From sequence record MW512573.1: 53,311 bases of DNA; one strand, given 5' to 3'. This DNA is from Clostridioides phage phiCD418. The notes below the pieces were generated by a model. The model did not search any database. It was not told where the DNA came from and saw only the letters and a list, made by a program, of their open reading frames with translations. Numbering within the stretch: the stretch's first letter is position 1; each line of letters starts with the position of its first letter. This document shows positions 29,351 through 51,123 of this stretch, piece by piece. The position numbers and the translations under genes were made by a program.

Positions 29351-29998
29351 ATGAAAATTGGTGATAAATTTGAAAACCTTACAATACTAGATATGGAACA
29401 AAGAAATGGCAGGAAATACTGTCTATGTAAATGCGGGAATTGTAGCAATGAAAAGTGGATAAGAGCGGATAGTTTAAAAAGAATAAAAGCATGTGGGTGC
29501 ATGAAAAGTAGCACACAATTTAAACAAAATGATTTAACAGGCAAAAAGTTTGGCAGATTAACAGCAATAAAGAACACTAACAAAAAAGCTAAAAGTGGTC
29601 ATTATATTTGGATTTGTAAGTGTGCTTGTGGAAATGAGATTAAGACAACAGAAAACAATTTAACTACTGGCAGAACTAAATCATGTGGATGTCTAAAAAA
29701 GGAATCTAATATAAAAAATGCAAAGATAGCTTTAAAAGTGCACAAAGAAAAAAATATTGTTGATAATACAAATTTATCTATTATAAAAAAGACAGAAGCA
29801 TATTCTAATTCAAAAACTAAAATTAGAGGGGTTTATTGGAATAAAGAAAAAAGAAAATACTGTGCTCAAATAGAATTTAAGAAAATACATTATAGTCTAG
29901 GTTACTATGATAACATAGAAGATGCTGAAAAGGCATATATAGAAGCTAAAGATAATTTACATAATAAATTTTTAGAAAAATTGTCTGAAGAAGAATAA
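29351..29998 (+). CDS. AP2-domain DNA-binding protein with duplicated Cys-rich N-terminal modules
   Basis: C-terminal IRGVYWNKEKRKYCAQIEFKKIHYSLGYYDNIEDAEKAYIEAKDNL matches the AP2/ERF fold pattern. Two N-terminal repeats of G(R)LT-x-L...CxCGN...CGC resemble zinc-ribbon modules. Confidence 0.5.
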   Translation: MKIGDKFENLTILDMEQRNGRKYCLCKCGNCSNEKWIRADSLKRIKACGCMKSSTQFKQNDLTGKKFGRLTAIKNTNKKAKSGHYIWICKCACGNEIKTTENNLTTGRTKSCGCLKKESNIKNAKIALKVHKEKNIVDNTNLSIIKKTEAYSNSKTKIRGVYWNKEKRKYCAQIEFKKIHYSLGYYDNIEDAEKAYIEAKDNLHNKFLEKLSEEE

Positions 29999-30007
29999 TA
30001 AATATAT

Positions 30008-30505
30008 TTGATAGTAGGAGAGGAAATTAAAATGAATAAACAAAAAATTAAAAGATTTTTAAAAATAATAGATAAGAATATGAATGAAATAAAAGAAGAA
30101 GCTATAAAAGCATATAAAGAAAGTTTTTTAGCAAAAGATAATAATATAAGAATATATATCAATCTAGCAGGCAAAGTTGAAGCTGTAGTAGTTCCGAGCT
30201 GGAGCAGATATATAGAAGATACGTACGAAAAAGAAATTTTTGTTTGTGAATTTGACAAAGAAGAAATCAACCTCAACGAGTTGCTCGGAGAACTTTGCTA
30301 TTTGAACGATTATGAAGAGTTCAAAAAATGGTGCGAAATTGAAAATGAAGATTTGAAATGGGACAGTTATAAAAAATTTAATAAAGATAATTTTGACGAA
30401 TTTATTGAAAGAAATATAGAATATAGTCTATCAGATTTTTTGAAAGAGTTAAGTGAAAGTATAGAAAATTGTAAACAAGATTTAAAATTAATGATTGAAA
30501 TTTAA
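30008..30505 (+). CDS. Hypothetical acidic protein
   Basis: 165 aa, RBS aggagagga. Confidence 0.4.
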   Translation: MIVGEEIKMNKQKIKRFLKIIDKNMNEIKEEAIKAYKESFLAKDNNIRIYINLAGKVEAVVVPSWSRYIEDTYEKEIFVCEFDKEEINLNELLGELCYLNDYEEFKKWCEIENEDLKWDSYKKFNKDNFDEFIERNIEYSLSDFLKELSESIENCKQDLKLMIEI

Positions 30506-30546
30506 ATGAAAGAGTATTATTATTAATGTATATAGTATCGCTTTTA

Positions 30547-30712
30547 AGATTAACTACGAGGGATTTAAAATATTTTTTAATTTATTTAGAAATGATATTG
30601 TAATAAAAATTTTTATATTAACTATAAGGGATTTAAATATCAATTTAATTTATATCGAAATGATACAATATCCAAATTATTTTAGATTAACTATGCGGAA
30701 ATAAAAACAGTG
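30547..30712. repeat. About 68-bp tandem repeat (2.4 copies) with a CRISPR-repeat-like 29-bp core
   Basis: ATTAAC anchors at 30555, 30623 and 30692. Middle copy core TTTTTATATTAACTATAAGGGATTTAAAT is about 25/29 identical to the C. difficile type I-B CRISPR repeat as recalled (GTTTTATATTAACTATATGGAATGTAAAT). The inter-repeat segments are also similar to each other. Confidence 0.5.
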
Positions 30713-30746
30713 TATTCAATAAATACACTGTTTTTTAATGCTAAAA

Positions 30747-31055
30747 TTAGTTATTATGATAACTTAATCCTTCAATTATAAATCCTACATTCGTCGTCAT
30801 TTCTGCTTCATCACTTTGTAATATTCCTTGTGTAAATTTGCTGTCATTCGGTAATGATACTTTTTTTCTTGCAACTACTTCTATGATTGTTTGAAATAGT
30901 TTAATTTTCATATTCTTATCAAATCCAGCAAATTGCAGATAATTTGTTACTTCTTGTGAAAACTTATTTAATTCAGATTTAGTCATTTTTTCAGATAACT
31001 CTTTTCCAACTTGCAAATAAACTTTTTTAGATTGTTCAACATCCATTTTTTTCAA
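30747..31055 (-). CDS. Hypothetical protein (minus strand)
   Basis: 102 aa ORF with RBS on the minus strand. Transcribed divergently from the BlaI-like genes. Confidence 0.4.
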   Translation of the reverse strand: MKKMDVEQSKKVYLQVGKELSEKMTKSELNKFSQEVTNYLQFAGFDKNMKIKLFQTIIEVVARKKVSLPNDSKFTQGILQSDEAEMTTNVGFIIEGLSYHNN

Positions 31056-31481
31056 CCCCTTTTTAAGTTATAATTCAATTATATTTTAAAAATGTTAATA
31101 CTTCAAATATAAATATTTTTGTTTAAGTATAAAACATCAATAACATTACTCAACACACCTTAAAATCGATTTAAATAAGTCTTTTTAATAACATAAATTA
31201 TATGATATTTATATAAGTCTTAGTCCCTATAGCTTTGCGTCACTAAATTTCTCTAGTTTTGCCGATTTAGTTTTATTCTACAACTAAAATAATACACTAG
31301 AATTAGTTATTATTCAACAAGATTGTTTGAAAATTGAATAAATTTATAGATATGAAAGTTATTTTTCTTCTAAGAAAAAAACTAAAACAGTAAAATATAT
31401 GGTAAAACTTACCTCTAGTTTTTGTGTTAAAAAGCTCCTATTATTAATTTAAGTTAGACGAATTTAAGGAAGTGACATAAA

Positions 31482-31859
31482 TTGAAAGAAGAAATATTAA
31501 TAGAAAAATTATTAAGAGCAGAATTAATAGTAATGGAGTATTTATGGAAAAAGGACACTCTAATGCCTAAAAAAGAAATTGTAAAAGAAATAAAACAGAT
31601 TTATGGATGGCATAAAAGTACAATAAAAATACTACTAAAAAGGCTAATTGACAAAGGTTATTTGGCTAGGGATATTATAAAATTTCAATCTTATTATAAA
31701 ATAATAATAGATAATGAAGAATATTATGCTTTTAAGAAAAAGGTACTAAAATCTAGTAAAAGTAGAAAAATAATGCGTTCACTTACCACTACGCATAAAA
31801 ATGTAAGTAAAGAGAAGTTAGACTCATTAGAAGAGTACTATAAAAACTTAAAAGAATGA
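31482..31859 (+). CDS. BlaI/MecI/CopY-family winged-helix transcriptional repressor (paralogue 1)
   Basis: TTG start with RBS aaggaagtga. LLRAELIVMEYLWKK...KSTIKILLKRLIDKGYLAR matches the Penicillinase_R N-terminal domain pattern. C-terminal dimerisation-like helix. Confidence 0.65.
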   Translation: MKEEILIEKLLRAELIVMEYLWKKDTLMPKKEIVKEIKQIYGWHKSTIKILLKRLIDKGYLARDIIKFQSYYKIIIDNEEYYAFKKKVLKSSKSRKIMRSLTTTHKNVSKEKLDSLEEYYKNLKE

Positions 31860-31963
31860 TATGGTAAAAATTGGATGGAATTATTTACCTTAATTCTCTT
31901 GTTTGTAAAACTTTATTGATATAGAATTTAACATATACATAAATCGGTAAAGGGGTGTAGACT

Positions 31964-32347
31964 ATGAAAATTAGTAAATTACCAGAAGCGGAATTAAAAG
32001 TTATGAGATATATTTGGGAAGCTAACAAGGTATTAACTTCTAGGGAATTAGTTGCTGCAATGGAAGAAAAATATGAATGGAATGAATCAACGACATTTAC
32101 AGTTTTAAAAAGGTTAGAGCGAAGAGAATTTTTAAGCACAGAGAAAATAGGCAAACTTACACATTACAATATACTAGTAAAAGAGAAAAAATATCTAAGG
32201 TTTGAAACGAAAGAATTTTTGAAGAACATACATAAGAATTCAATTTCAAGTTTAATATCAGCGTTACATAGTAAAGATGATGAAGTGGATGAAGATAAAT
32301 TAATTGAACTCGAAGAACATTTTAAAAATTTAAAAGAGAAAGAATAA
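31964..32347 (+). CDS. BlaI/MecI/CopY-family winged-helix transcriptional repressor (paralogue 2)
   Basis: LPEAELKVMRYIWEANKVLTSRELVAAMEEKYEWNESTTFTVLKRLERREFLSTEKIGKLTHYNIL aligns along its length with S. aureus BlaI. No C-terminal Cys cluster, so not CopY-type. Confidence 0.8.
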   Translation: MKISKLPEAELKVMRYIWEANKVLTSRELVAAMEEKYEWNESTTFTVLKRLERREFLSTEKIGKLTHYNILVKEKKYLRFETKEFLKNIHKNSISSLISALHSKDDEVDEDKLIELEEHFKNLKEKE

Positions 32348-32361
32348 ATAAAGATTATTTT

Positions 32362-32391
32362 AGGTGGCAAATTATTTTTGCCACCTTTTTT
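32362..32391 (+). terminator. Rho-independent terminator (perfect 10-bp stem AGGTGGCAAA/TTTGCCACCT + T6)
   Basis: Hairpin 32362-32386 with loop TTATT, followed by TTTTTT. Directly after the second BlaI-like gene. Confidence 0.6.
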
Positions 32392-32392
32392 G

Positions 32393-32656
32393 CCACCATG
32401 ACAGTTTAATAAAATAAAATACAAATAAAGAAATATAAATAAAATAGAATAAAGAAATTGTTTTAGATAGGTTGTAAATAAATGTACTCATAAAAACATA
32501 AATAAATATAAATAAACATAAATAAAATATAAGAATTTCTGTGAGAAATACGACTTTTTTATATAAAATAGCAAAATAACAGTGTTTGAGCAAAAAAAAG
32601 AATGTTTTTTATCGTTTTGCCACCTGTTTGCCACCATAACTTTTTTCGGTGGCAAA
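32393..32656. other. Candidate attP region: AT-rich core flanked by four same-orientation TTTGCCACC motifs and a second GGTGGCAAA inverted repeat
   Basis: TTTGCCACC at 32377, 32389, 32606 and 32617. Inverted repeat TTTGCCACC/GGTGGCAAA at 32617-32646. CATAAATAAA direct repeats at 32496 and 32516. Immediately adjacent to the integrase 3' end. Confidence 0.4.
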
Positions 32657-33871
32657 TTATTGTAAAATGCCCTCCAAAATATCTATTGTTTCACTTTCCA
32701 TTTTACTTGTAACATGTGAATATGTGTCCATAGTGGTTGATAATTGACTATGACCTAATCTTTGTTGTATATATTTTACATTAGCTCCATTTTCTAATAA
32801 TAATGTGGCATGTGTATGTCGCAAGCAATGAAAATTAAAGTTAATATTTAGTTTCTTGTTAATAGTTCTTATAGCAGCGTCAATATTGTTGTGATTTACA
32901 AATGAGCCATCTTTTTTTCTACAAACCCAATCATACTCAGTTTCTTTATACCATTTTCCAATTTTAATTTTTTGTTTTTTTTGATTCAATTTTTCCTCTT
33001 TTAATATCCTAGACAAAGTATCACCTATTTTAATATCTCTTATTGATGTTTTTGTCTTAGGTGATGCTAATTCAAATTCTGAAACTTTTCTCTTTATTAA
33101 ATTTTTTCTAACTTTGATTATATTATTATCTAAATCAACATTATCCCAACAAAGACCTAATATTTCTCCTTTTCTCATGCCTGTATGAAACCCTATAAGT
33201 AGAGGAATATAGATATTTGTATTTTTAGGATATATTTCTAGTATTTTATTGAACTCATCTAGTGTTATAGTCTTGTTATCTGACTCATTTTTTACCTTTA
33301 AAACATTTTTTGGTATACTGGCATATTGAACAGGATTTTCCTTAATGAGTTTGTAAGGGTAAACAGCAGATTTTAAAGCAGCATTTAATACAACATAAAT
33401 CGCTTTTAAAACTCCTTTTGTGTAGTGTTTTTCTTCTCCGTTTTGTGTGTATGTCTCTTTTGATTTATTATTTAAAAATTCTTGAATAATAGCTGGATTT
33501 ATAGATTTTAGCTTACATTTACCAAGTCTAGGTTCTATATGATTTTCAATTAAATTTCTATAACTTTCCTGAGTATTGTATTTGCAATTAAGAAGTACAT
33601 ACTCTTTGTACCAAAAGTTAAGATAGTCTGATAAACTCATATTTGTTTCATCAAACACTATACCAGCATTTTCATATTCATTTATTGCATCACGGAGCGA
33701 TTTTTCAGCTTCTTTCTTAGTGTTTCCACCAACTCTTTCTACCTTTTTTCTCTTGCCATCTACTATACCTGCATCAAAGTAGTAATACCACTTCTTTCCA
33801 CGTTTTCTTACGCCGCCTTTCATAAAATCTCTCCTCTCAAAAGCTTTTTTTATGTAATTATATAATAACAT
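32657..33871 (-). CDS. int: Tyrosine integrase (phage integrase family)
   Basis: 404 aa. C-terminal catalytic motifs HCLRHTHATLLLENGANVKYIQQRLGHSQLSTTMDTYSHV (R...H-x-x-R...Y). Confidence 0.9.
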   Translation of the reverse strand: MLLYNYIKKAFERRDFMKGGVRKRGKKWYYYFDAGIVDGKRKKVERVGGNTKKEAEKSLRDAINEYENAGIVFDETNMSLSDYLNFWYKEYVLLNCKYNTQESYRNLIENHIEPRLGKCKLKSINPAIIQEFLNNKSKETYTQNGEEKHYTKGVLKAIYVVLNAALKSAVYPYKLIKENPVQYASIPKNVLKVKNESDNKTITLDEFNKILEIYPKNTNIYIPLLIGFHTGMRKGEILGLCWDNVDLDNNIIKVRKNLIKRKVSEFELASPKTKTSIRDIKIGDTLSRILKEEKLNQKKQKIKIGKWYKETEYDWVCRKKDGSFVNHNNIDAAIRTINKKLNINFNFHCLRHTHATLLLENGANVKYIQQRLGHSQLSTTMDTYSHVTSKMESETIDILEGILQ

Positions 33872-33960
33872 ATATCAATTTAAATAAAATAAATAAAAAA
33901 GACTATAAGAAACAAAGTTTTATGTTTATAATTAATAGTCTTTTTTATTTAGATACATAT

Positions 33961-34176
33961 TTAATGTTTTTTATCACGTGATTCCAGCACTTTTTCTGCC
34001 AAATAAACAACTATTTTTTCATACTCAATATCAGTTTCTAAAGAAAAGTCAACAATAGCAGGTATCGTCATATCTCCTGCATATTTATTACCTAACCAAT
34101 TTTCAATTAATTCCAATTCTTCTTTGCTTAATTCAAATTTTTTCTTTTTATTAAAACTTAAGTTCAATTTATTCAC
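33961..34176 (-). CDS. Hypothetical acidic protein (possible excision or regulatory role)
   Basis: 71 aa on the integrase strand, separated from int by an 8-bp-stem hairpin with flanking A/T runs (33905-33953). Confidence 0.3.
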   Translation of the reverse strand: MNKLNLSFNKKKKFELSKEELELIENWLGNKYAGDMTIPAIVDFSLETDIEYEKIVVYLAEKVLESRDKKH

Positions 34177-34225
34177 CTCAAATAATATTATATATTAAAA
34201 ATAGTATTTGATAGAAACATTCGAA

Positions 34226-34447
34226 TTATTTATGTAATTTTCTTTTTTTAATATATTCATCAGCAAAATAATTTACTAAATATTTTTCCTCCAATCCTAA
34301 AGCTATTTCTAATTCAATAAGAGCAGGGATAGTTAAATCTTTATTCTCATTATTTTCCAACCTAGAAATTTGACTTCTGTGGCAACCAACTCTTTTTGCT
34401 AACTCTATTTGTGTTAATTTCTTCTTTTTTCGTAACTCTTTTAACAT
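34226..34447 (-). CDS. XRE-family HTH protein
   Basis: KLTQIELAKRVGCHRSQISRLENNE is a classic Cro/C1-type helix-turn-helix. Confidence 0.55.
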   Translation of the reverse strand: MLKELRKKKKLTQIELAKRVGCHRSQISRLENNENKDLTIPALIELEIALGLEEKYLVNYFADEYIKKRKLHK

Positions 34448-34904
34448 ATATTTAACCTACCTTTTAGATAATTTTATATATGTTAGTTTGTGTAATTTCT
34501 TGTAATAAATGTGCAATATTCGCACACTTTTTGTTGGAAATTTGTGCTAGAATGTAGTTAAGAAATAACTTTATCTAGATAAAGCAAAAATAATAGAAGC
34601 TATAAAATATAATAATATTTTACAGTTATTTTATAGTTTTAAGCTTTGAAAAAGAGGTGGTTGTAACTATTTTTAAGAACGTATGTTTCGTGGAATTAAT
34701 AAATAAAATATTTTATAGGGGATGATATATTTGAATAAGACGAAATATTATGATATTTTAAAGTTAAACTTATTAATGAAAAAGTTGAAAGAATTGGATA
34801 AAAATAAAATCAATGAATATAAAATAAAAGTGAAAGAAATACATAAAATCAATAAAAAAGAGGAATGATTCCTCTTTTTTATTATATTCATTTTCAGAAA
34901 TAAA

Positions 34905-35309
34905 CTATTTTTTATTTTTTTCGTCTAGTAAAAATAATTCTGCAACTTTTAATGCTTTTTCTCTTGCGTCTGGGCTTAGCTCGCTAAATATATTAAAAAC
35001 TTCTTTCATATCTTCGTCAAGATACATATTCTCAATAAGCTCCTTTTCTGTTTTAAAATTTTCAGCATCATAATCTTTTTCGTTTTTATTTATAAATAAG
35101 CTATTTCTAACATCAGTTCTTCCTAATAAATAATCTGTAGACACATCAAAATAGTTTGCATATTCTTCTATTGTACTTTTCTTAGGTTCTCTTAAACCAT
35201 TTTCTATCCTTGATAGTGTAGATTTGTTTATATGTAAATCCTCGCTTAATTTGTCTAGCGAGATGCCTTTTTCTTCTCTCAATTCTTTTATCCTATTCAA
35301 TTTGCACAA
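34905..35309 (-). CDS. CI-like repressor (XRE HTH)
   Basis: 134 aa. ISLDKLSEDLHINKSTLSRIENGLREP HTH. Divergent from the cro-like gene across an operator-rich 170-bp region. Confidence 0.7.
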   Translation of the reverse strand: MCKLNRIKELREEKGISLDKLSEDLHINKSTLSRIENGLREPKKSTIEEYANYFDVSTDYLLGRTDVRNSLFINKNEKDYDAENFKTEKELIENMYLDEDMKEVFNIFSELSPDAREKALKVAELFLLDEKNKK

Positions 35310-35406
35310 CCCCTTTTTATATTAATTCCAAAATAGCAACTTTTATTTATATTATAGCAACAAAATTAATTATTACAATTTTTTTTGCTAAAAAAGCAAC
35401 AAAAGT

Positions 35407-35435
35407 ATTGACTATAATCACAAAACTTGATATTA
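35407..35435 (+). promoter_or_regulatory. PR-like promoter (TTGACT-17-TATTAT) within an operator repeat field
   Basis: -35 at 35407-35412, -10 at 35430-35435. Flanked by repeated AAAATAGCAAC-type motifs (35330, 35354, 35392, 35453; also inside the cro 3' end). Confidence 0.45.
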
Positions 35436-35478
35436 TATAAATATGAAGTTGCCAAAATAGCAAAAAGGAAGTGATTTA

Positions 35479-35712
35479 ATGTACTTAAATAGATTAGAAG
35501 GATTGATGAAGGAAAATAGACACACCCAAAAAAATGTGGCAGATATATTAGGTCTTAGCTCATATGGTTTTAGATTAAAATTAAAAGGAAAAAACGAATT
35601 TAAAGCAAGTGAAATAAAAAAGATATCTAAATTATATAATGTATCTGCGGATTATTTTTTTTCAGATGAAGTTGCTAAAATAGCAATAAAAGAAGAAAGG
35701 GGCAATAAATAA
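35479..35712 (+). CDS. Cro-like regulator (XRE HTH)
   Basis: 77 aa. TQKNVADILGLSSYGFRLKLKG HTH. Divergent from the cI-like gene. Confidence 0.6.
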   Translation: MYLNRLEGLMKENRHTQKNVADILGLSSYGFRLKLKGKNEFKASEIKKISKLYNVSADYFFSDEVAKIAIKEERGNK

Positions 35713-36464
35713 TGAAGAATCTAACCATAATCAAGCAAAATAATCAATTTTTAGTTGAAAGTAGAGAAGTAGCAGAATTAATAGAAAAGAAGCACGATAA
35801 TTTATTAAGAGATATAAGAGGATACAAGAAGATTTTAGAGGACTCATCAAATTTGAAGAGTCAAGATTTCTTCATAGAAAGTACTTATATAAATACTCAA
35901 AATAAAATTCAACCTTGCTACTTATTAACTAAAAAAGGTTGTGACATGGTAGCTAATAAAATGACAGGTGAAAAGGGAATTATATTTACAGCGATTTATG
36001 TAACTAAGTTTGAAGAAATGGAGCGAGAGTTAAAAGAACAACAACCTAAATTACCAACTACATATAAAGAAGCACTGCAACAGTTATTAATCGAAGTTGA
36101 AGAAAAAGAGCAATTACAATTAGAAAATCAAGTAATGAAACCAAAAGCAGATTACTTTGATGCTCTAGTAGAAAGAAACTTGCTAACTAATATAAGAGAT
36201 ACAGCAAAAGAACTTGGAGTCAAAGAAAAAACATTTGTTTTATGGTTAATAGAGAAGAAATATTGTTACAGAGATTTAAAAGGCAAAATAAAACCTTACT
36301 CTAACAAGATGCAGTATTTTGAACTGAAAGAATTTACAACACCATACGGACATTCAGATACTCAAACATTAATAAATCCAAAAGGAAGAGAAGCATTTAG
36401 ATTATTACTTATAAAGGATGGACTGGTAAAAGAAAAAGAATATCAAATAACTTTATTAGGCTAA
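35712..36464 (+). CDS. Phage regulatory protein Rha / antirepressor (KilAC-type C-terminus)
   Basis: N-terminal IIKQNNQFLVESREVAELIEKKHDNLLRDIRGY matches the Rha/ORF6N family start. ATGA-coupled to cro. Confidence 0.55.
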   Translation: MKNLTIIKQNNQFLVESREVAELIEKKHDNLLRDIRGYKKILEDSSNLKSQDFFIESTYINTQNKIQPCYLLTKKGCDMVANKMTGEKGIIFTAIYVTKFEEMERELKEQQPKLPTTYKEALQQLLIEVEEKEQLQLENQVMKPKADYFDALVERNLLTNIRDTAKELGVKEKTFVLWLIEKKYCYRDLKGKIKPYSNKMQYFELKEFTTPYGHSDTQTLINPKGREAFRLLLIKDGLVKEKEYQITLLG

Positions 36465-44213: not shown

Positions 44214-45287
44214 TTGCTTACATTTTTAGATTTATTCGCAGGGATAGGTGGCTTTAGGCTAGGGATGGAAAAAGCAGGACATAAATGTTTGGGACATTGC
44301 GAATATGATAAATTCGCAAATTTAAGTTATAATGCCATGCACAAACCGAAGGAGGATGAATGGTTTGAAAGAGATATTAGAGAAATTAGAACAGAAAATA
44401 TCCCAAGAGCAGATGTCTGGTGTTTTGGATTCCCATGTCAAGACATTTCTGTTGCAGGGAAACAATTTGGATTCAGAGGAGAACGTTCAAGTTTATTTTT
44501 TACAGTTACAAAACTTATTAGAGAACTCAAAGAAGAAGATAGACCCAAGTATTTACTTATTGAAAACGTTAAAAATCTACTTAGTGTTAATGGAGGATTT
44601 GATTTCCTCAAAGTTCTCGTTGAACTGGATGAAATCGGCTATGATGCAGAGTGGCAAGTTCTTAATTCTAAAAACTTCGGAGTACCCCAAAATAGAGAAC
44701 GAATATTCATTGTTGGACATTTTAGAGGACGAAGTACACGAAAAGTATTTCCTATCGAAAGAAAAAGTGGAAAAAATCTTGAGCAACTAAATAATCCAAC
44801 TCATAGTACAAATAGAATTTATGATGCAGTTGGAGTTGCTAGATGTATTAGAAGTCAGGCAGGAGGTGGAGGTGCTAAAACAGGTCTATACTTTATAGAC
44901 TTAAATAAAAACTCTAAAGTAACAATAAATGCTAGATGCCTTAAAGCAAAATATAATGCAGGTGTGACAAATAGAAATTGTGATAATAGTGGAGTTTTAG
45001 TTAATGCAGTTTTAACGCCCGATAGGGTAAATAAAAGACAAAATGGTCGTAGAATTAAAGAAAGCGGAGAACCAATGTTCACATTGACAGCTCAAGATAA
45101 ACATGGAATTTTGAAAAATGGAGATATAAGAAGGTTAACACCAAAGGAATGCTTTAGGTTGCAAGGATTTCCGGATAAATATTACGAAAGAGCAGCAAGT
45201 GTATGCTCAGATAGTCAACTGTACAAGCAAGCAGGAAATGCTGTTACTGCAAATGTTGTATATGAAATAGCAAAAAGAATGGGCTAA
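44214..45287 (+). CDS. DNA (cytosine-5)-methyltransferase
   Basis: Motif I FLDLFAGIGGFRLG, motif IV GFPCQDISVAGKQ, motif VI ENVKNL, C-terminal QAGNAV. TTG start after RBS aaggagg. Confidence 0.9.
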   Translation: MLTFLDLFAGIGGFRLGMEKAGHKCLGHCEYDKFANLSYNAMHKPKEDEWFERDIREIRTENIPRADVWCFGFPCQDISVAGKQFGFRGERSSLFFTVTKLIRELKEEDRPKYLLIENVKNLLSVNGGFDFLKVLVELDEIGYDAEWQVLNSKNFGVPQNRERIFIVGHFRGRSTRKVFPIERKSGKNLEQLNNPTHSTNRIYDAVGVARCIRSQAGGGGAKTGLYFIDLNKNSKVTINARCLKAKYNAGVTNRNCDNSGVLVNAVLTPDRVNKRQNGRRIKESGEPMFTLTAQDKHGILKNGDIRRLTPKECFRLQGFPDKYYERAASVCSDSQLYKQAGNAVTANVVYEIAKRMG

Positions 45288-45288
45288 A

Positions 45289-45358
45289 AGTTGCAAAATG
45301 TCTTTTAGTATGAATATTTTTGAAGTGTTTTGTAACTCTCAAATGAAAATAAGGGGTG
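45289..45358 (+). repeat. Direct repeat copy 2 downstream of the methyltransferase gene
   Basis: AGTTGCAAAATGTCTTTTAGTATGAATATTTTTGAAGTGTTTTGTAACTCTCAAATGAAAATAAGGGGTGG. Supplies the RBS/promoter for the 45365 gene. Confidence 0.55.
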
Positions 45359-45364
45359 GGATAA

Positions 45365-45574
45365 ATGTATGAATATATATTAAGATGGCAAATAGGATTA
45401 TCGTTAGAAAATAGAAAAATACATTATACATATGGAAGTAAAGAAGCTTTAAGAAAGAAAGCAAAGGCATTGGCTAAAGATGAAAATATAGTACTAATAA
45501 CTATAGATAAGGTAGATGAAGTTATAAAAAATACTATAAGCGAGAAGATTATAGAACGCTTTAAAAATTTATAA
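45365..45574 (+). CDS. Hypothetical small protein
   Basis: 69 aa ORF with RBS from repeat copy 2. Confidence 0.35.
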   Translation: MYEYILRWQIGLSLENRKIHYTYGSKEALRKKAKALAKDENIVLITIDKVDEVIKNTISEKIIERFKNL

Positions 45575-45585
45575 GGGGTGAAATT

Positions 45586-46590
45586 ATGATAATACACAAA
45601 TTTATAATACATGTTTTAGATAAGAATAGCGATACACCAATACTAAATGACTTTGAGGGTAGAGTCAGTCAAGATATTGAAGCTTTCTTTCAAAAGAAGA
45701 TAAGCAAAGTATCAAGAGATAATGACATCAGAACAGCAGTATTTAATGACTATAGTAACAATCTAATTAAGAAGTGTTGTGAACAAATTATTTATGATGA
45801 AAGTTCATTTTTAAATAACTCTAAAGAGATTGCAGCTTACTTATTTGATGTTATGAAGCTTAATGCTACATTAGAATCTTGTGACTTAGCAATTTGCTTA
45901 TACTCTCAAAAAGATGAAAAGAAAGTTGCTATATTAAAACTTGATTACAACAAGTCATATACTCATTCAATCGAGTTTAAAGATGATAAATTTAATATAC
46001 AGATGTCAGCTAATGAAGTTAATATACAAGAAACTAAAACGGTCAAAGTTGCTGCTTTGGTTGGATTAAGTGGAATGAATGATGAATACCATCTTAGGGT
46101 TTTAGACAAGGATGCAGAAAAGGAAGAAGCTAATTCTAAGTTTGTTACAGAGTTTTTAAATGCTACTAAAGTGAAAGATGACAAGTACAAGACTAAGAAG
46201 TTCAAAAATACAGCTGAGAATTGGATAACTAATGCTCTTAGTAATGATATAAAACAAGCAGAGGATGTAAGAAGTATATTAAATTATACTTTGATAGAAA
46301 AGCATGAAATTGATATAAATGATTTTGTTGATAAAACAATTAAAGATGATAAGTTAAAAGATAGTTTTAAAGAACATATGGAAGAAAAAGGTCTTGATGA
46401 AGGATTTAGTATAGATAAAAAATGGGTTGAGAAAAAGCTTAAAAAGAGAAATATAAAAACTGACAATGGCTTTGATATAAAAGGTAATCTGACTGATTTT
46501 GAGGACCCAATGAAATATACAGTAAGACAAAATCAAAATGGGTCTATAGATATAATTATTAAGAATGTAACCTTTTATGAGGAAAAGTAG
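45586..46590 (+). CDS. Hypothetical protein (weak nucleoid-associated-protein-like N-terminus)
   Basis: 334 aa. N-terminus MIIHKFIIHVLDKNSD is reminiscent of NdpA/NA37-type starts. Not verified. Confidence 0.35.
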   Translation: MIIHKFIIHVLDKNSDTPILNDFEGRVSQDIEAFFQKKISKVSRDNDIRTAVFNDYSNNLIKKCCEQIIYDESSFLNNSKEIAAYLFDVMKLNATLESCDLAICLYSQKDEKKVAILKLDYNKSYTHSIEFKDDKFNIQMSANEVNIQETKTVKVAALVGLSGMNDEYHLRVLDKDAEKEEANSKFVTEFLNATKVKDDKYKTKKFKNTAENWITNALSNDIKQAEDVRSILNYTLIEKHEIDINDFVDKTIKDDKLKDSFKEHMEEKGLDEGFSIDKKWVEKKLKKRNIKTDNGFDIKGNLTDFEDPMKYTVRQNQNGSIDIIIKNVTFYEEK

Positions 46591-49185: not shown

Positions 49186-49941
49186 GTGTCAAATAAAATA
49201 AAATTAGAAGTTCCTAATGAAATAAGTTACGTCATTGTTCAATGCTTTAGTAAGGCAAGAGAAGAAATTAGAGAATATACAGGAAAACAAAACTTTATAA
49301 CTAAAAATGGAATACCTTTTCAGTTCTGGGATTTGTTAAATAATGCAATTGATACCGCATTTAATAGTTCTAATTTTAAAGCGTATAAATCTAAACGTGG
49401 ACGTTGGAGAATGATTTTTATATATGATAAAAATAGCAAGTATCTTTATGTATTAATGAGAGAGCAAAGATATAAAGAACTTCATAACAATATCAATAAA
49501 AGAGAAAAAATGCATTATGTAGATATTTTAACTAAAGCATTTAATAGAGATTTAAAAGCTCCTATTGAACAACTATCATTTTTTTCAATAGAATTTGATA
49601 ATGAAGACAAAGTTGAAATATATTTACAGAAATTAATTGATAGTATAAATAAAGATGGTGCTATCATTGAACACCATGTATTATTATTATTTAATCAAAC
49701 AGCTGAATATGAACTGACATCTATTCGTGCTGTGATGGTTGACACAAATTTAAATATTGTATCAGAACAAAATTTGAGTTCTTATATATCTATAGAAGAA
49801 AGTACAGTTGTAGAAAAAGTTGATAAGACTAATCCTGCTGCAAATAATCCTACTCTTGGATTGAAATTAACTGCAAAAGCAGATGCAAGAAAGAAAACAC
49901 ATCCTTTAAAAAAGGCGAAAAAGGAGGAAGATGCCAAGTAG
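49186..49941 (+). CDS. Uncharacterised 251-aa protein with Lys-rich C-terminal tail
   Basis: GTG start (uncertain). No family recognised by eye. Low-complexity tail KADARKKTHPLKKAKKEEDAK. First gene of a two-gene operon with its own promoter. Confidence 0.45.
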   Translation: MSNKIKLEVPNEISYVIVQCFSKAREEIREYTGKQNFITKNGIPFQFWDLLNNAIDTAFNSSNFKAYKSKRGRWRMIFIYDKNSKYLYVLMREQRYKELHNNINKREKMHYVDILTKAFNRDLKAPIEQLSFFSIEFDNEDKVEIYLQKLIDSINKDGAIIEHHVLLLFNQTAEYELTSIRAVMVDTNLNIVSEQNLSSYISIEESTVVEKVDKTNPAANNPTLGLKLTAKADARKKTHPLKKAKKEEDAK

Positions 49942-49974
49942 TCACTTTTTAGTGAATAGATGGAGGAAATAATT

Positions 49975-51123
49975 ATGGAAATTAATTTTAATGGAGAGCG
50001 TTTAAAGAAAGCTCGTATATATAGAGGAATGACAGTAGCTGAATTAGCTGAGAGAATTGACTGTCAAAGACAGACTGTTTCGATGTATGAGAATAATAAA
50101 TCGAAACCAAATGATAATAATGTAGTGAAACGAATAGCAAGAGTGTTAGGTTTTCCAGTTAAGTTCTTTTTAGAAACAGGAACTAATATTGCAGTAGGTT
50201 CAACATATTTCAGGGCATTATTGACTACAAATAAAAAATATAGAGCGGAGCAAATTCAAAAAATGGAATTTCTAGCTGAAATATATTTCTTCTTACAAGA
50301 TTATATTGAATTCCCAACATTAGATTTACCAGATTGTTCTGGAAAAACACCAGAAGAAGCTGCTTTACTTTTAAGAGAAGCTTGGGGATTAGGATTAAAA
50401 CCTATTGATAATATCATATATGAAGTAGAACAACATGGAATACTTGTAACAAGCTTTTCGACTTCTACAGATGATATAGATGCATTTAGTCAGATGATAG
50501 ATATTTCAGGAGAAACTGTCTATCTTATTGGATATTCTAGTAATAAGACTTCTGCTTCTAGAATTCATTTTGATATAGCTCATGAATTAGGGCATATATG
50601 CTTACATGAATGGAGTGAGGATGTAGAAGCTTTAGAAAAGCAAGAGTTTAAAGATAGAGAATCAGAAGCTAATCGCTTCGCGTCTACATTCTTATTGCCA
50701 GAAGAAACATTTAAACTTGATGCCAAGAGAACCCCTTTACGTATTCCAAGTTATACAGAATTAAAGCGTAAATGGAAAGTTTCTATTCAAGCAATGATTC
50801 GTCGTTCATATTCTTTGGGAATCATCAGTATGGATGAATATCAGTCTATGATTCGTACTTTACAACGTAGGGGACTAAGAAAATCAGAACCATTAGATGA
50901 TGAATTATTAACTTCTCTACCAGCATTGTTAAAAACAGCAGTTTTGATGTTATTAAATGAGAAGGTATTTACTCCAAAAGAGTTTATGGATGAACTTTCA
51001 TTTTCCTATAACTTTAGTCTAGAGCCAGAAGAAGTAGAATATCTATTAAGTTTACCTAAAAATACTCTAACTTCTGCTAAAGTTATACCATTTCCTGATT
51101 TACAACTTAAAAAAGATGTTTAA
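49975..51123 (+). CDS. Fused HTH-XRE / ImmA-IrrE family (M78) metallopeptidase
   Basis: N-terminal LKKARIYRGMTVAELAERIDCQRQTVSMYENNKSKP HTH. HEXXH zinc motif AHELGHICLHEW in the central domain. About 150-aa C-terminal extension. ATG at 49975 after RBS ggagga. Confidence 0.7.
   Translation: MEINFNGERLKKARIYRGMTVAELAERIDCQRQTVSMYENNKSKPNDNNVVKRIARVLGFPVKFFLETGTNIAVGSTYFRALLTTNKKYRAEQIQKMEFLAEIYFFLQDYIEFPTLDLPDCSGKTPEEAALLLREAWGLGLKPIDNIIYEVEQHGILVTSFSTSTDDIDAFSQMIDISGETVYLIGYSSNKTSASRIHFDIAHELGHICLHEWSEDVEALEKQEFKDRESEANRFASTFLLPEETFKLDAKRTPLRIPSYTELKRKWKVSIQAMIRRSYSLGIISMDEYQSMIRTLQRRGLRKSEPLDDELLTSLPALLKTAVLMLLNEKVFTPKEFMDELSFSYNFSLEPEEVEYLLSLPKNTLTSAKVIPFPDLQLKKDV

Follow-up and report, generated by a model that had tools for sequence, protein, structure and literature searches.

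Tandem BlaI/MecI-family repressor genes without a sensor protease at the lysogeny end of Clostridioides phage phiCD418

The BlaI and MecI repressors of Staphylococcus aureus and Bacillus licheniformis are described counterparts of two phage genes, here called ORF1 and ORF2 (open reading frames 1 and 2), that lie at positions 31482-31859 and 31964-32347 of the 53,311-nucleotide record of Clostridioides phage phiCD418 (MW512573.1); this whole stretch of DNA is referred to as the window below. The phage proteins share the Pfam family with BlaI and MecI, and ORF2 has a similar length and, in a structural model, the same two-domain fold, whereas an adjacent BlaR1 or MecR1 gene, the Asn-Phe pair, the TACAnnTGTA operator, and a beta-lactamase or PBP2a target gene are missing from the phage. 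Further counterparts are found in the same species group: C. difficile R20291 contains seven BlaR-like M56 genes, only four of the seven being adjacent to BlaI, and the non-canonical BlaIR-like systems of C. difficile comprise CenIR, cdr_2276/2277, and cdr_2279/2280 with the peptidoglycan-binding protein CDR_2278 (PMC13492132). Like the phage proteins, these are short repressors without a link to beta-lactamase, but each of them is followed by an M56 protease, which the phage pair lacks, and the targets of CenI (cdr_0474 and cwp6) are known. According to the literature, host BlaI-type regulators control a beta-lactamase, and one of them, CenI, controls lysis via Cwp6. The two phage genes are:

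31482-31859, plus strand: ORF1, a divergent BlaI/MecI-family paralogue of 125 amino acids with a TTG start codon and the ribosome-binding site AAGGAAGTGA
31964-32347, plus strand: ORF2, a BlaI/MecI-family repressor of 127 amino acids, the core member of the pair

A sequence-only reading of this DNA had proposed two tandem BlaI/MecI-family repressors and had suggested a hidden Markov model search with Penicillinase_R as a check; both proteins do belong to the BlaI/MecI/CopY family. With a cut-off of 22.6 bits for Pfam PF03965 (Penicillinase_R, 115 positions), ORF1 scored 51.0 bits over profile positions 4-112 and ORF2 85.7 bits over positions 3-112, and both match phrog_1077. ORF2 aligns at full length with the MecI and BlaI chains of the PDB (1okr, 1sax, 1sd4, 1xsd, and 1p6r) at 23-25% identity, and its AlphaFold model (predicted local distance difference test score 86.5) has MecI and BlaI as the best Foldseek matches, again at full length, with template modeling scores of 0.65-0.77. 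In this model, helices at residues 8-20, 26-37, and 41-53 are followed by a beta-hairpin and by helices at 74-90, 94-101, and 110-126, so that the predicted fold is an N-terminal winged helix-turn-helix (HTH) with a C-terminal helical dimerization domain, as in BlaI and MecI. ORF1 is 36% identical to ORF2, and its sequence matches in the PDB span only residues 9-90, that is, the N-terminal winged helix; its homologues in phiCD505 and CDMH1 have ATG at the position of the TTG start.

The pair does not have the traits of a canonical BlaI-BlaR1 or MecI-MecR1 system, namely, the M56 neighbor, the scissile bond, and the operator. The absence of a BlaR1/MecR1-type sensor protease, which had been proposed from the sequence, was confirmed in the window by three approaches: no ORF of at least 80 amino acids combines HExxH with transmembrane segments, phmmer searches of the window with M56 fragments from related loci returned only noise, and Peptidase_M56 was not found in Pfam scans of 16 window ORFs. 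Likewise, no M56 protease is annotated beside the pair in any of the related phage loci examined. The scissile bond of BlaI and MecI, which we take to be Asn101-Phe102 in the dimerization domain, falls in a three-residue gap of ORF1.

It had also been suggested that the proteins might act on CopY-type regulons, and this was not supported. The CopY/TcrY repressors share the Pfam family and the winged-helix domain with the phage pair, but the phage proteins lack the C-terminal CxCx4CxC motif, and neither a cop box nor a copper ATPase gene is present. A CopY-type role for ORF1 and ORF2 is unlikely, because the translations of both genes contain no cysteine at all and their scores are far below the NCBIfam CopY/TcrY cut-off (TIGR02698, 121.95 bits): this model is the best NCBIfam match by E-value, yet yields only 38.7 and 62.8 bits for the two proteins. 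The NCBIfam models for BlaI/MecI resistance repressors (NF012168, NF000186, NF000243, and NF000244, with cut-offs of 180-250 bits) gave at best 49.8 bits for ORF2 and 23.5 bits for ORF1, in both cases below the cut-offs.

The TACA-type operators expected upstream of the pair were not found. Exact TACAnnTGTA boxes are absent from 30400-35700, which includes the regions upstream of either gene and the lysogeny switch. When one mismatch was allowed, three sites were obtained in the same interval, which are implausible as regulatory sites: two are within the coding sequences of ORF1 and ORF2, and the third, at 33954, straddles the stop codon of the gene upstream of the integrase gene. The whole window contains five exact boxes (3917, 17348, 20493, 21039, and 49803), versus 1.5 expected, and five or more were present in 2 of 100 shuffled sequences; all of them are in coding regions far from the pair.

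The location of the pair next to attP and the integrase gene, at the lysogeny end of the phage, is as had been proposed. The window is a mosaic C. difficile myovirus, of which the structural half is about 90% identical to phiMMP02, while from 31207 onward the lysogeny end shares 99% identity with phiMMP01, phiMMP03, and CDKM15. The neighboring elements are:

32536-32549, no strand assigned: right edge of the attP crossover region (TTTCTGTGAGAAAT), where homology to integrated prophages ends
32657-33871, minus strand: tyrosine integrase (Pfam Phage_integrase, Phage_int_SAM_3, and Arm-DNA-bind_4)

Comparison of the window with three integrated prophages (L023-L025) revealed perfect identity from the stop codon of ORF2 to 32549 and host sequence beyond, and therefore the crossover is placed at about 32536-32549, approximately 200 bp downstream of the pair. 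In integrated prophages, the pair, or its single member, is the last gene before host DNA, always at the lysogeny end, and the pair and the integrase gene come to lie at opposite prophage ends. The window contains, in addition, a separate standard switch with a CI-type HTH gene (HTH_3, 34905-35309), a Cro-like gene (35479-35712), and an antirepressor gene (35712-36464). PADLOC gave no defense-system match for ORF1, ORF2, or their immediate neighbors.

The attB site is located within a gene for a GntR/UTRA-family regulator upstream of a mannose/sorbose-type phosphotransferase system operon (window 32536-32549; 4578-5153 in L023-L026). After integration, a UTRA-only ORF of 191 amino acids is what remains of this gene, and therefore lysogeny probably inactivates the regulator. 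Four direct repeats like TTTTGCCACC lie on both sides of the attP core (32375-32397 and 32614-32635), the first pair overlapping the terminator of ORF2, and they may be arm-type sites of the integrase.

It should be noted that the pair is already annotated and published, and is not new. It is listed as "BlaI/MecI/CopY family transcriptional regulator (x2)" in CDKM9 and CDKM15, as transcriptional regulators in phiC2, phiMMP01, and phiMMP03, and as "putative penicillinase repressor" in phiMMP02, and a paper from 2016 described "two copies of repR" with the penicillinase repressor family domain PF03965 in the lysogeny module (PMC5127024). In phiC2, phiMMP01/03, and CDKM9/15, proteins that are 97-100% identical are encoded in the same order and at the same position beside the integrase gene (ORF2 is 100% identical to proteins of phiMMP01, phiMMP03, and CDKM15); the genes of the window are thus no different from those of these phages, while the DNA to the left of 31207 belongs to a different mosaic piece. 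In the assembly collection, the ORF2 protein is indexed with exactly this sequence in 1497 blocks. The wording of the 2016 paper suggests identity with RepR of phiCD119, which we rejected: RepR is ORF45 of that phage, a CI-type HTH protein encoded on the other side of the integrase gene, and its equivalent in the window is the HTH_3 protein at 34905-35309, whereas the BlaI-type genes of phiCD119 are ORF41 and ORF42. The name repR is therefore misleading for the BlaI-type pair. PtrX (bioRxiv 10.1101/2023.08.24.554564) was described as a putative CI-type HTH protein, and no connection to the BlaI family is mentioned there; a literature search with CD0978, CD0979, CD2887, and CD2888 as possible strain 630 names of the pair gave nothing relevant.

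The pair, or only one gene of this type, occurs in phiC2, phiMMP01/02/03, CDKM9/15, phiCD505/508, CDMH1, phiCDHM19, phiCD119, phiCD211, and phiCD38-2-like plasmids. The phages phiCD505, phiCD508, CDMH1, and phiMMP02 contain tandem pairs whose proteins have diverged, a single copy was found in each of phiCDHM19, phiCD211, and the phiCD38-2-like plasmid pCDBI1, and the pair co-occurs with tyrosine as well as with serine integrases. A single-protein scan of genome contigs for distant relatives led to only three Clostridioides genomes. ORF2 comes in at least five allele types with a mutual identity of 40-50%, and ORF1 in two types that are about 40% identical. The ratio of nonsynonymous to synonymous substitutions (dN/dS) is 0.24-0.36 for ORF1 and 0.17-0.21 for ORF2 (five comparisons in all, with dS up to 0.95), and thus both genes are maintained by purifying selection. 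Loss is observed for either member. ORF1 carries a frameshift in the P0045-type prophages, which are very common, and is deleted in phiCDHM19, ORF2 is truncated in phiMMP02, and ORF2 without ORF1 is found in L004, L005, phiCDHM19, and pCDBI1; in L004 and L005, the spacer and ORF2 alone are present as a unit. Together with the 100-bp spacer upstream and the terminator, ORF2 thus behaves as an independently mobile unit, and ORF1 is an optional partner, which some phages have in truncated form or lack.

Locus L024 (CP149742.1, 2400-4600) contains the BlaI pair, a decayed riboswitch, and two small ORFs between the host greA-lysS genes and the attR/gntR' junction, with no other phage genes beside the pair, and looks like a prophage remnant that kept the pair.

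Several elements around the two genes are candidates for their control:

31391-31396, plus strand: candidate -10 hexamer of ORF1, TAAAAT here and TAGAAT in most relatives
31401-31413, no strand assigned: dyad GGTAA-AAC-TTACC at the predicted ORF1 transcript start, a candidate autoregulatory operator
31863-31889, no strand assigned: second dyad, GGTAAA-N15-TTTACC, directly after the stop codon of ORF1, a weak candidate for a second operator or a hairpin
31899-31944, plus strand: candidate promoter region of ORF2, with TTGTTT-17-TAGAAT (31899-31927) and TTGATA-17-ATAAAT (31916-31944) as putative hexamer pairs
32362-32386, plus strand: intrinsic terminator hairpin after ORF2, a 10-bp stem with five G-C pairs followed by a T run

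The position of the candidate ORF1 -10 hexamer is conserved in all related loci. The GGTAA and TTACC arms of the first dyad are invariant across the loci that contain ORF1, with AAC, AAA, or ATT as the spacer, and one arm is mutated in phiCDHM19, the one locus from which ORF1 has been deleted. The pattern GGTAA-N0-20-TTACC has only two sites in the window, the two dyads listed, versus 0.58 expected. The terminator after ORF2 is the only terminator-like site within 30400-32800, and the fold of the ORF1-ORF2 spacer RNA is no better than that of shuffled sequence (z = -1.24).

Two motifs in this spacer had been put forward as parts of a possible operator region, of which one survives in part. The motif TGTAAAAC is not conserved, TGAGAAGC being present at this position in L002, and it was rejected as an operator, while ACATATACATAAAT coincides with the conserved sequence ATACATAAAT (31935-31944). 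The latter is kept in the window, in phiCD505, and in pZ1322HCD0031-2, upstream of three divergent ORF2 alleles, although the remaining spacer differs. It is compatible with promoters of the type TTGNTA-N16/17-ATAAAT, and would suit a promoter -10 region equally well as an operator.

We tentatively favor the explanation, to which we would give somewhat less than an even chance, that ORF1 and ORF2 are functional paralogous winged-helix orphan repressors that are expressed from the prophage and regulate themselves. According to this proposal, the pair would be the last of the accessory ("moron") modules of the prophage and would lie about 200 bp from attR once the phage has integrated. Each gene would have its own sigma-A-type promoter and would be expressed in the lysogen, and ORF1 would repress its own promoter via the conserved GGTAA-N3-TTACC dyad located where the transcript starts. 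The proteins would act in trans and, since the phage has no canonical TACAnnTGTA targets, on host genes or on non-canonical phage sites. Proteolytic relief, if it ever occurs, would have to depend on a BlaR-like M56 protein of the host, because the phage encodes no M56 protease. Besides the family assignment, the selection on both genes, the prevalence and position of the pair, the modularity of ORF2, and the first dyad, this explanation draws on the BlaR-like host genes that lack a neighboring BlaI and on relatives with 40-50% identity to ORF2 in Intestinibacter, Clostridium, and a Clostridioides plasmid, in which an M56 gene comes directly after the repressor gene.

Several observations weigh against this explanation. 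The promoter assignments for the pair are below the threshold of the consensus scan, the ORF1 -10 hexamer having been left unflagged because its -35 region is weak. The first dyad was found by inspecting these very regions, so that its statistics are post hoc, and the second dyad is not conserved, its right arm being TTTGGC in L002 and L005. The Asn101-Phe102 pair aligns with Ala-Leu in ORF2 (SLISA/LHS), and no paper was found in the literature searched in which the function of phage BlaI-type proteins was tested by expression, binding, or cleavage. Lastly, ORF2 is truncated in phiMMP02 (gp40), and ORF41 and ORF42 are both truncated in phiCD119; viable phages with only truncated copies indicate that the module is dispensable for the phage life cycle.

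The sequence-only reading had offered another role, that of a super-repressor or decoy for host regulons, which we regard as rather unlikely. In this case, ORF2, and perhaps ORF1, might bind the chromosomal BlaI-type operators of the host (of the BlaIR, CenIR, or cdr_2276-2280 systems) or form mixed dimers with their repressors, and the beta-lactam or cell-envelope responses of the lysogen would then be altered. The lack of canonical boxes at the pair and at the lysogeny switch is consistent with this, as the targets may be outside the phage, and so is the control of beta-lactamase and lysis by host BlaI-type regulators. The relatives of ORF2 also lend it some support. The nearest ones outside Clostridioides, in Intestinibacter bartlettii and Clostridium species, share 40-41% identity with ORF2 and have an M56 gene directly after them (one relative, P0050, is not M56-linked), and perfect TACAnnTGTA boxes are found upstream of three M56-linked relatives (L010-L012). 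The Clostridioides plasmid pESS10701d contains two BlaI-M56 pairs with a peptidoglycan-binding protein, in a layout that mirrors cdr_2276/2277 and cdr_2279/2280/2278 of R20291, and its BlaI proteins are 48-50% identical to ORF2. However, these plasmid BlaI-M56 pairs, the closest to ORF2, themselves lack canonical boxes. Moreover, the identity of ORF2 to MecI and BlaI is low, and the recognition helix of ORF2 differs from that of MecI at Arg46 (Phe) and Thr50 (Lys, MecI numbering), and the diversity of the ORF2 alleles fits badly with one fixed host target.

A connection to the host by way of proteolysis is also conceivable, but unlikely in our view: the phage orphan repressors might be substrates of the BlaR-like M56 proteases of the host, so that a regulon of prophage accessory genes would be plugged into envelope sensing, or the host BlaI/CenI-type regulons (lysis and beta-lactamase) would be buffered. 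In this case, the many alleles of ORF2 would reflect matching to different sensors or operators.

It is similarly improbable that the pair is a regulator of the phage life cycle, controlling integration, excision, immunity, or superinfection exclusion. The constant adjacency to the integrase gene and attP, and the allele diversity and mosaic joints of ORF2, which resemble those of immunity modules, could be explained in this way. Nevertheless, the window has its own CI/Cro/antirepressor switch, and the pair and the integrase gene are separated to opposite ends upon integration. Furthermore, the integrases that accompany the pair include unrelated tyrosine and serine enzymes, the pair is also found in a plasmid-prophage that does not integrate, the truncated copies of phiCD119 (ORF41/42) and phiMMP02 (gp40) are in inducible or isolated phages, and the pair has been retained in the L024 remnant, where no phage genes are left of it.

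The region upstream of ORF1 had been taken for a simple leader of 425 bp. This view had to be abandoned, as the region includes a minus-strand promoter-like site and the 5' half of a riboswitch for cyclic di-GMP (c-di-GMP):

31184-31273, minus strand: truncated c-di-GMP-I riboswitch aptamer of the Cdi1_4/Cdi1_5 type (Rfam RF01051, 37.2 bits)
31289-31317, minus strand: promoter-like site TTGAAT-17-TATTAT that precedes the riboswitch remnant and is divergent from ORF1

The score of the aptamer is barely over the gathering score of 35, P2 consists mostly of non-standard pairs, and in the alignment the 5' half is intact and the 3' half mispaired. Intact aptamers with 69-75 bits are present at the same position in seven loci (L002, L003, L006, L008, L009, phiCD505, and CDMH1), in divergent orientation about 200 bp upstream of ORF1, and the homology of the window to these loci breaks off at about 31207, midway through the aptamer. 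The riboswitch of the window thus appears to be a truncated remnant. Riboswitches of the Cdi1_4/Cdi1_5 type precede the RCd11/RCd12 antitoxin RNAs of type I toxin-antitoxin pairs in phiCD630-1 and phiCD630-2 (PMC7699646), and the position of the promoter-like site agrees with the P1 promoter described for Cdi1_4/RCd11 in the same paper. L002 contains a small hydrophobic ORF that matches the type I toxin-antitoxin layout. In the window, P1 and the 5' half of the riboswitch face an unrelated phrog_4021 ORF, the minus-strand gene at 30747-31055, which may have lost c-di-GMP control, with the P1-like promoter being intact. Between the riboswitch and 31414, a block of 190 bp has 86-100% identity across all loci, including those whose proteins share only 40%, and thus the mosaic joints fall at the ORF starts.

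This arrangement raises the possibility, which we consider very unlikely, that the pair regulates the neighboring riboswitch and type I toxin-antitoxin module (of the Cdi1_4/RCd11/CD0977.1 type) from a shared divergent promoter region. The seven loci in which an intact riboswitch on the opposite strand accompanies different BlaI alleles, the conserved intergenic block, and the published biology of the riboswitch and toxin-antitoxin module would be in line with such a role. In the window, however, only a truncated aptamer is present and an unrelated gene has taken the place of the toxin-antitoxin module, although the pair is still 100% conserved; in addition, loci with only ORF2 lack the riboswitch, and the dyad is more than 80 bp away from the P1 hexamers.

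That the two genes are decaying, functionless remnants of a captured BlaI-BlaR operon, as the loss of the sensor partner and the truncated copies in several phages might suggest, is highly improbable in view of a dN/dS of 0.17-0.36 while dS reaches 0.8-0.95, the very wide spread of intact copies, and the conservation of the start codon, the ribosome-binding site, the promoter-like elements, and the terminator.

Further observations concern the surroundings of the riboswitch remnant. The real start of the minus-strand gene at 30747-31055 is probably an ATG at 31046, which is preceded by the ribosome-binding site AAAGGGG. One and the same module end (...ATAACATAAATTATATGAT) meets the riboswitch at its middle in the window (about 31204-31207) and the ORF2 spacer in L005 (about 5890), and it looks like a recurrent mosaic junction, because both joints have a short microhomology of the ATGAT type. 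Just downstream of the gene, at 30703-30735, a perfect 14-bp inverted repeat (AAAAACAGTGTATT / AATACACTGTTTTT) probably acts as a terminator in both directions. Three degenerate CRISPR-like direct repeats (TTTTATATTAACTATAAGGGATTTAAA) with a spacing of 68-69 bp are located at 30543-30706; this region matches many C. difficile phages, and its counterpart in phiCD211 overlaps an annotated CRISPR repeat and Cas3-HD.

The window contains additional cargo. A RosmerTA-type defense pair at 49186-51123 consists of RmrT (DUF5986; PADLOC 9.7e-79) and RmrA (HTH and Peptidase_M78; PADLOC 2e-164), and TACAGTTGTA, which is present twice among the TACAnnTGTA boxes of the window, occurs once inside rmrT, 150 bp upstream of rmrA. 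The regions 44214-46590 and 29351-29998 carry genes for a C-5 cytosine DNA methylase, an NA37 nucleoid-associated protein, and an AP2/HNH-type protein. In other elements, orphan BlaI-type genes are located directly upstream of vanZ1 (pZ1322HCD0031-2; L036, 3001-4216) and directly upstream of a gene for a LytC-like cell-surface amidase (phiCD211; L017, 3007-4390), and the gene order hints that orphan BlaI-type repressors may control envelope cargo.

BlaI-type regulators are present at the lysogeny end of nearly every C. difficile temperate phage family examined. Recent work has revealed that the BlaIR-like systems of C. difficile govern envelope genes and lysis, beyond beta-lactamase, and that the host keeps BlaR-like sensors without a partner. 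Therefore, if the phage repressors talk to the BlaIR-like systems of the host, lysogeny could change envelope stress responses, antibiotic tolerance, or lysis in this pathogen.

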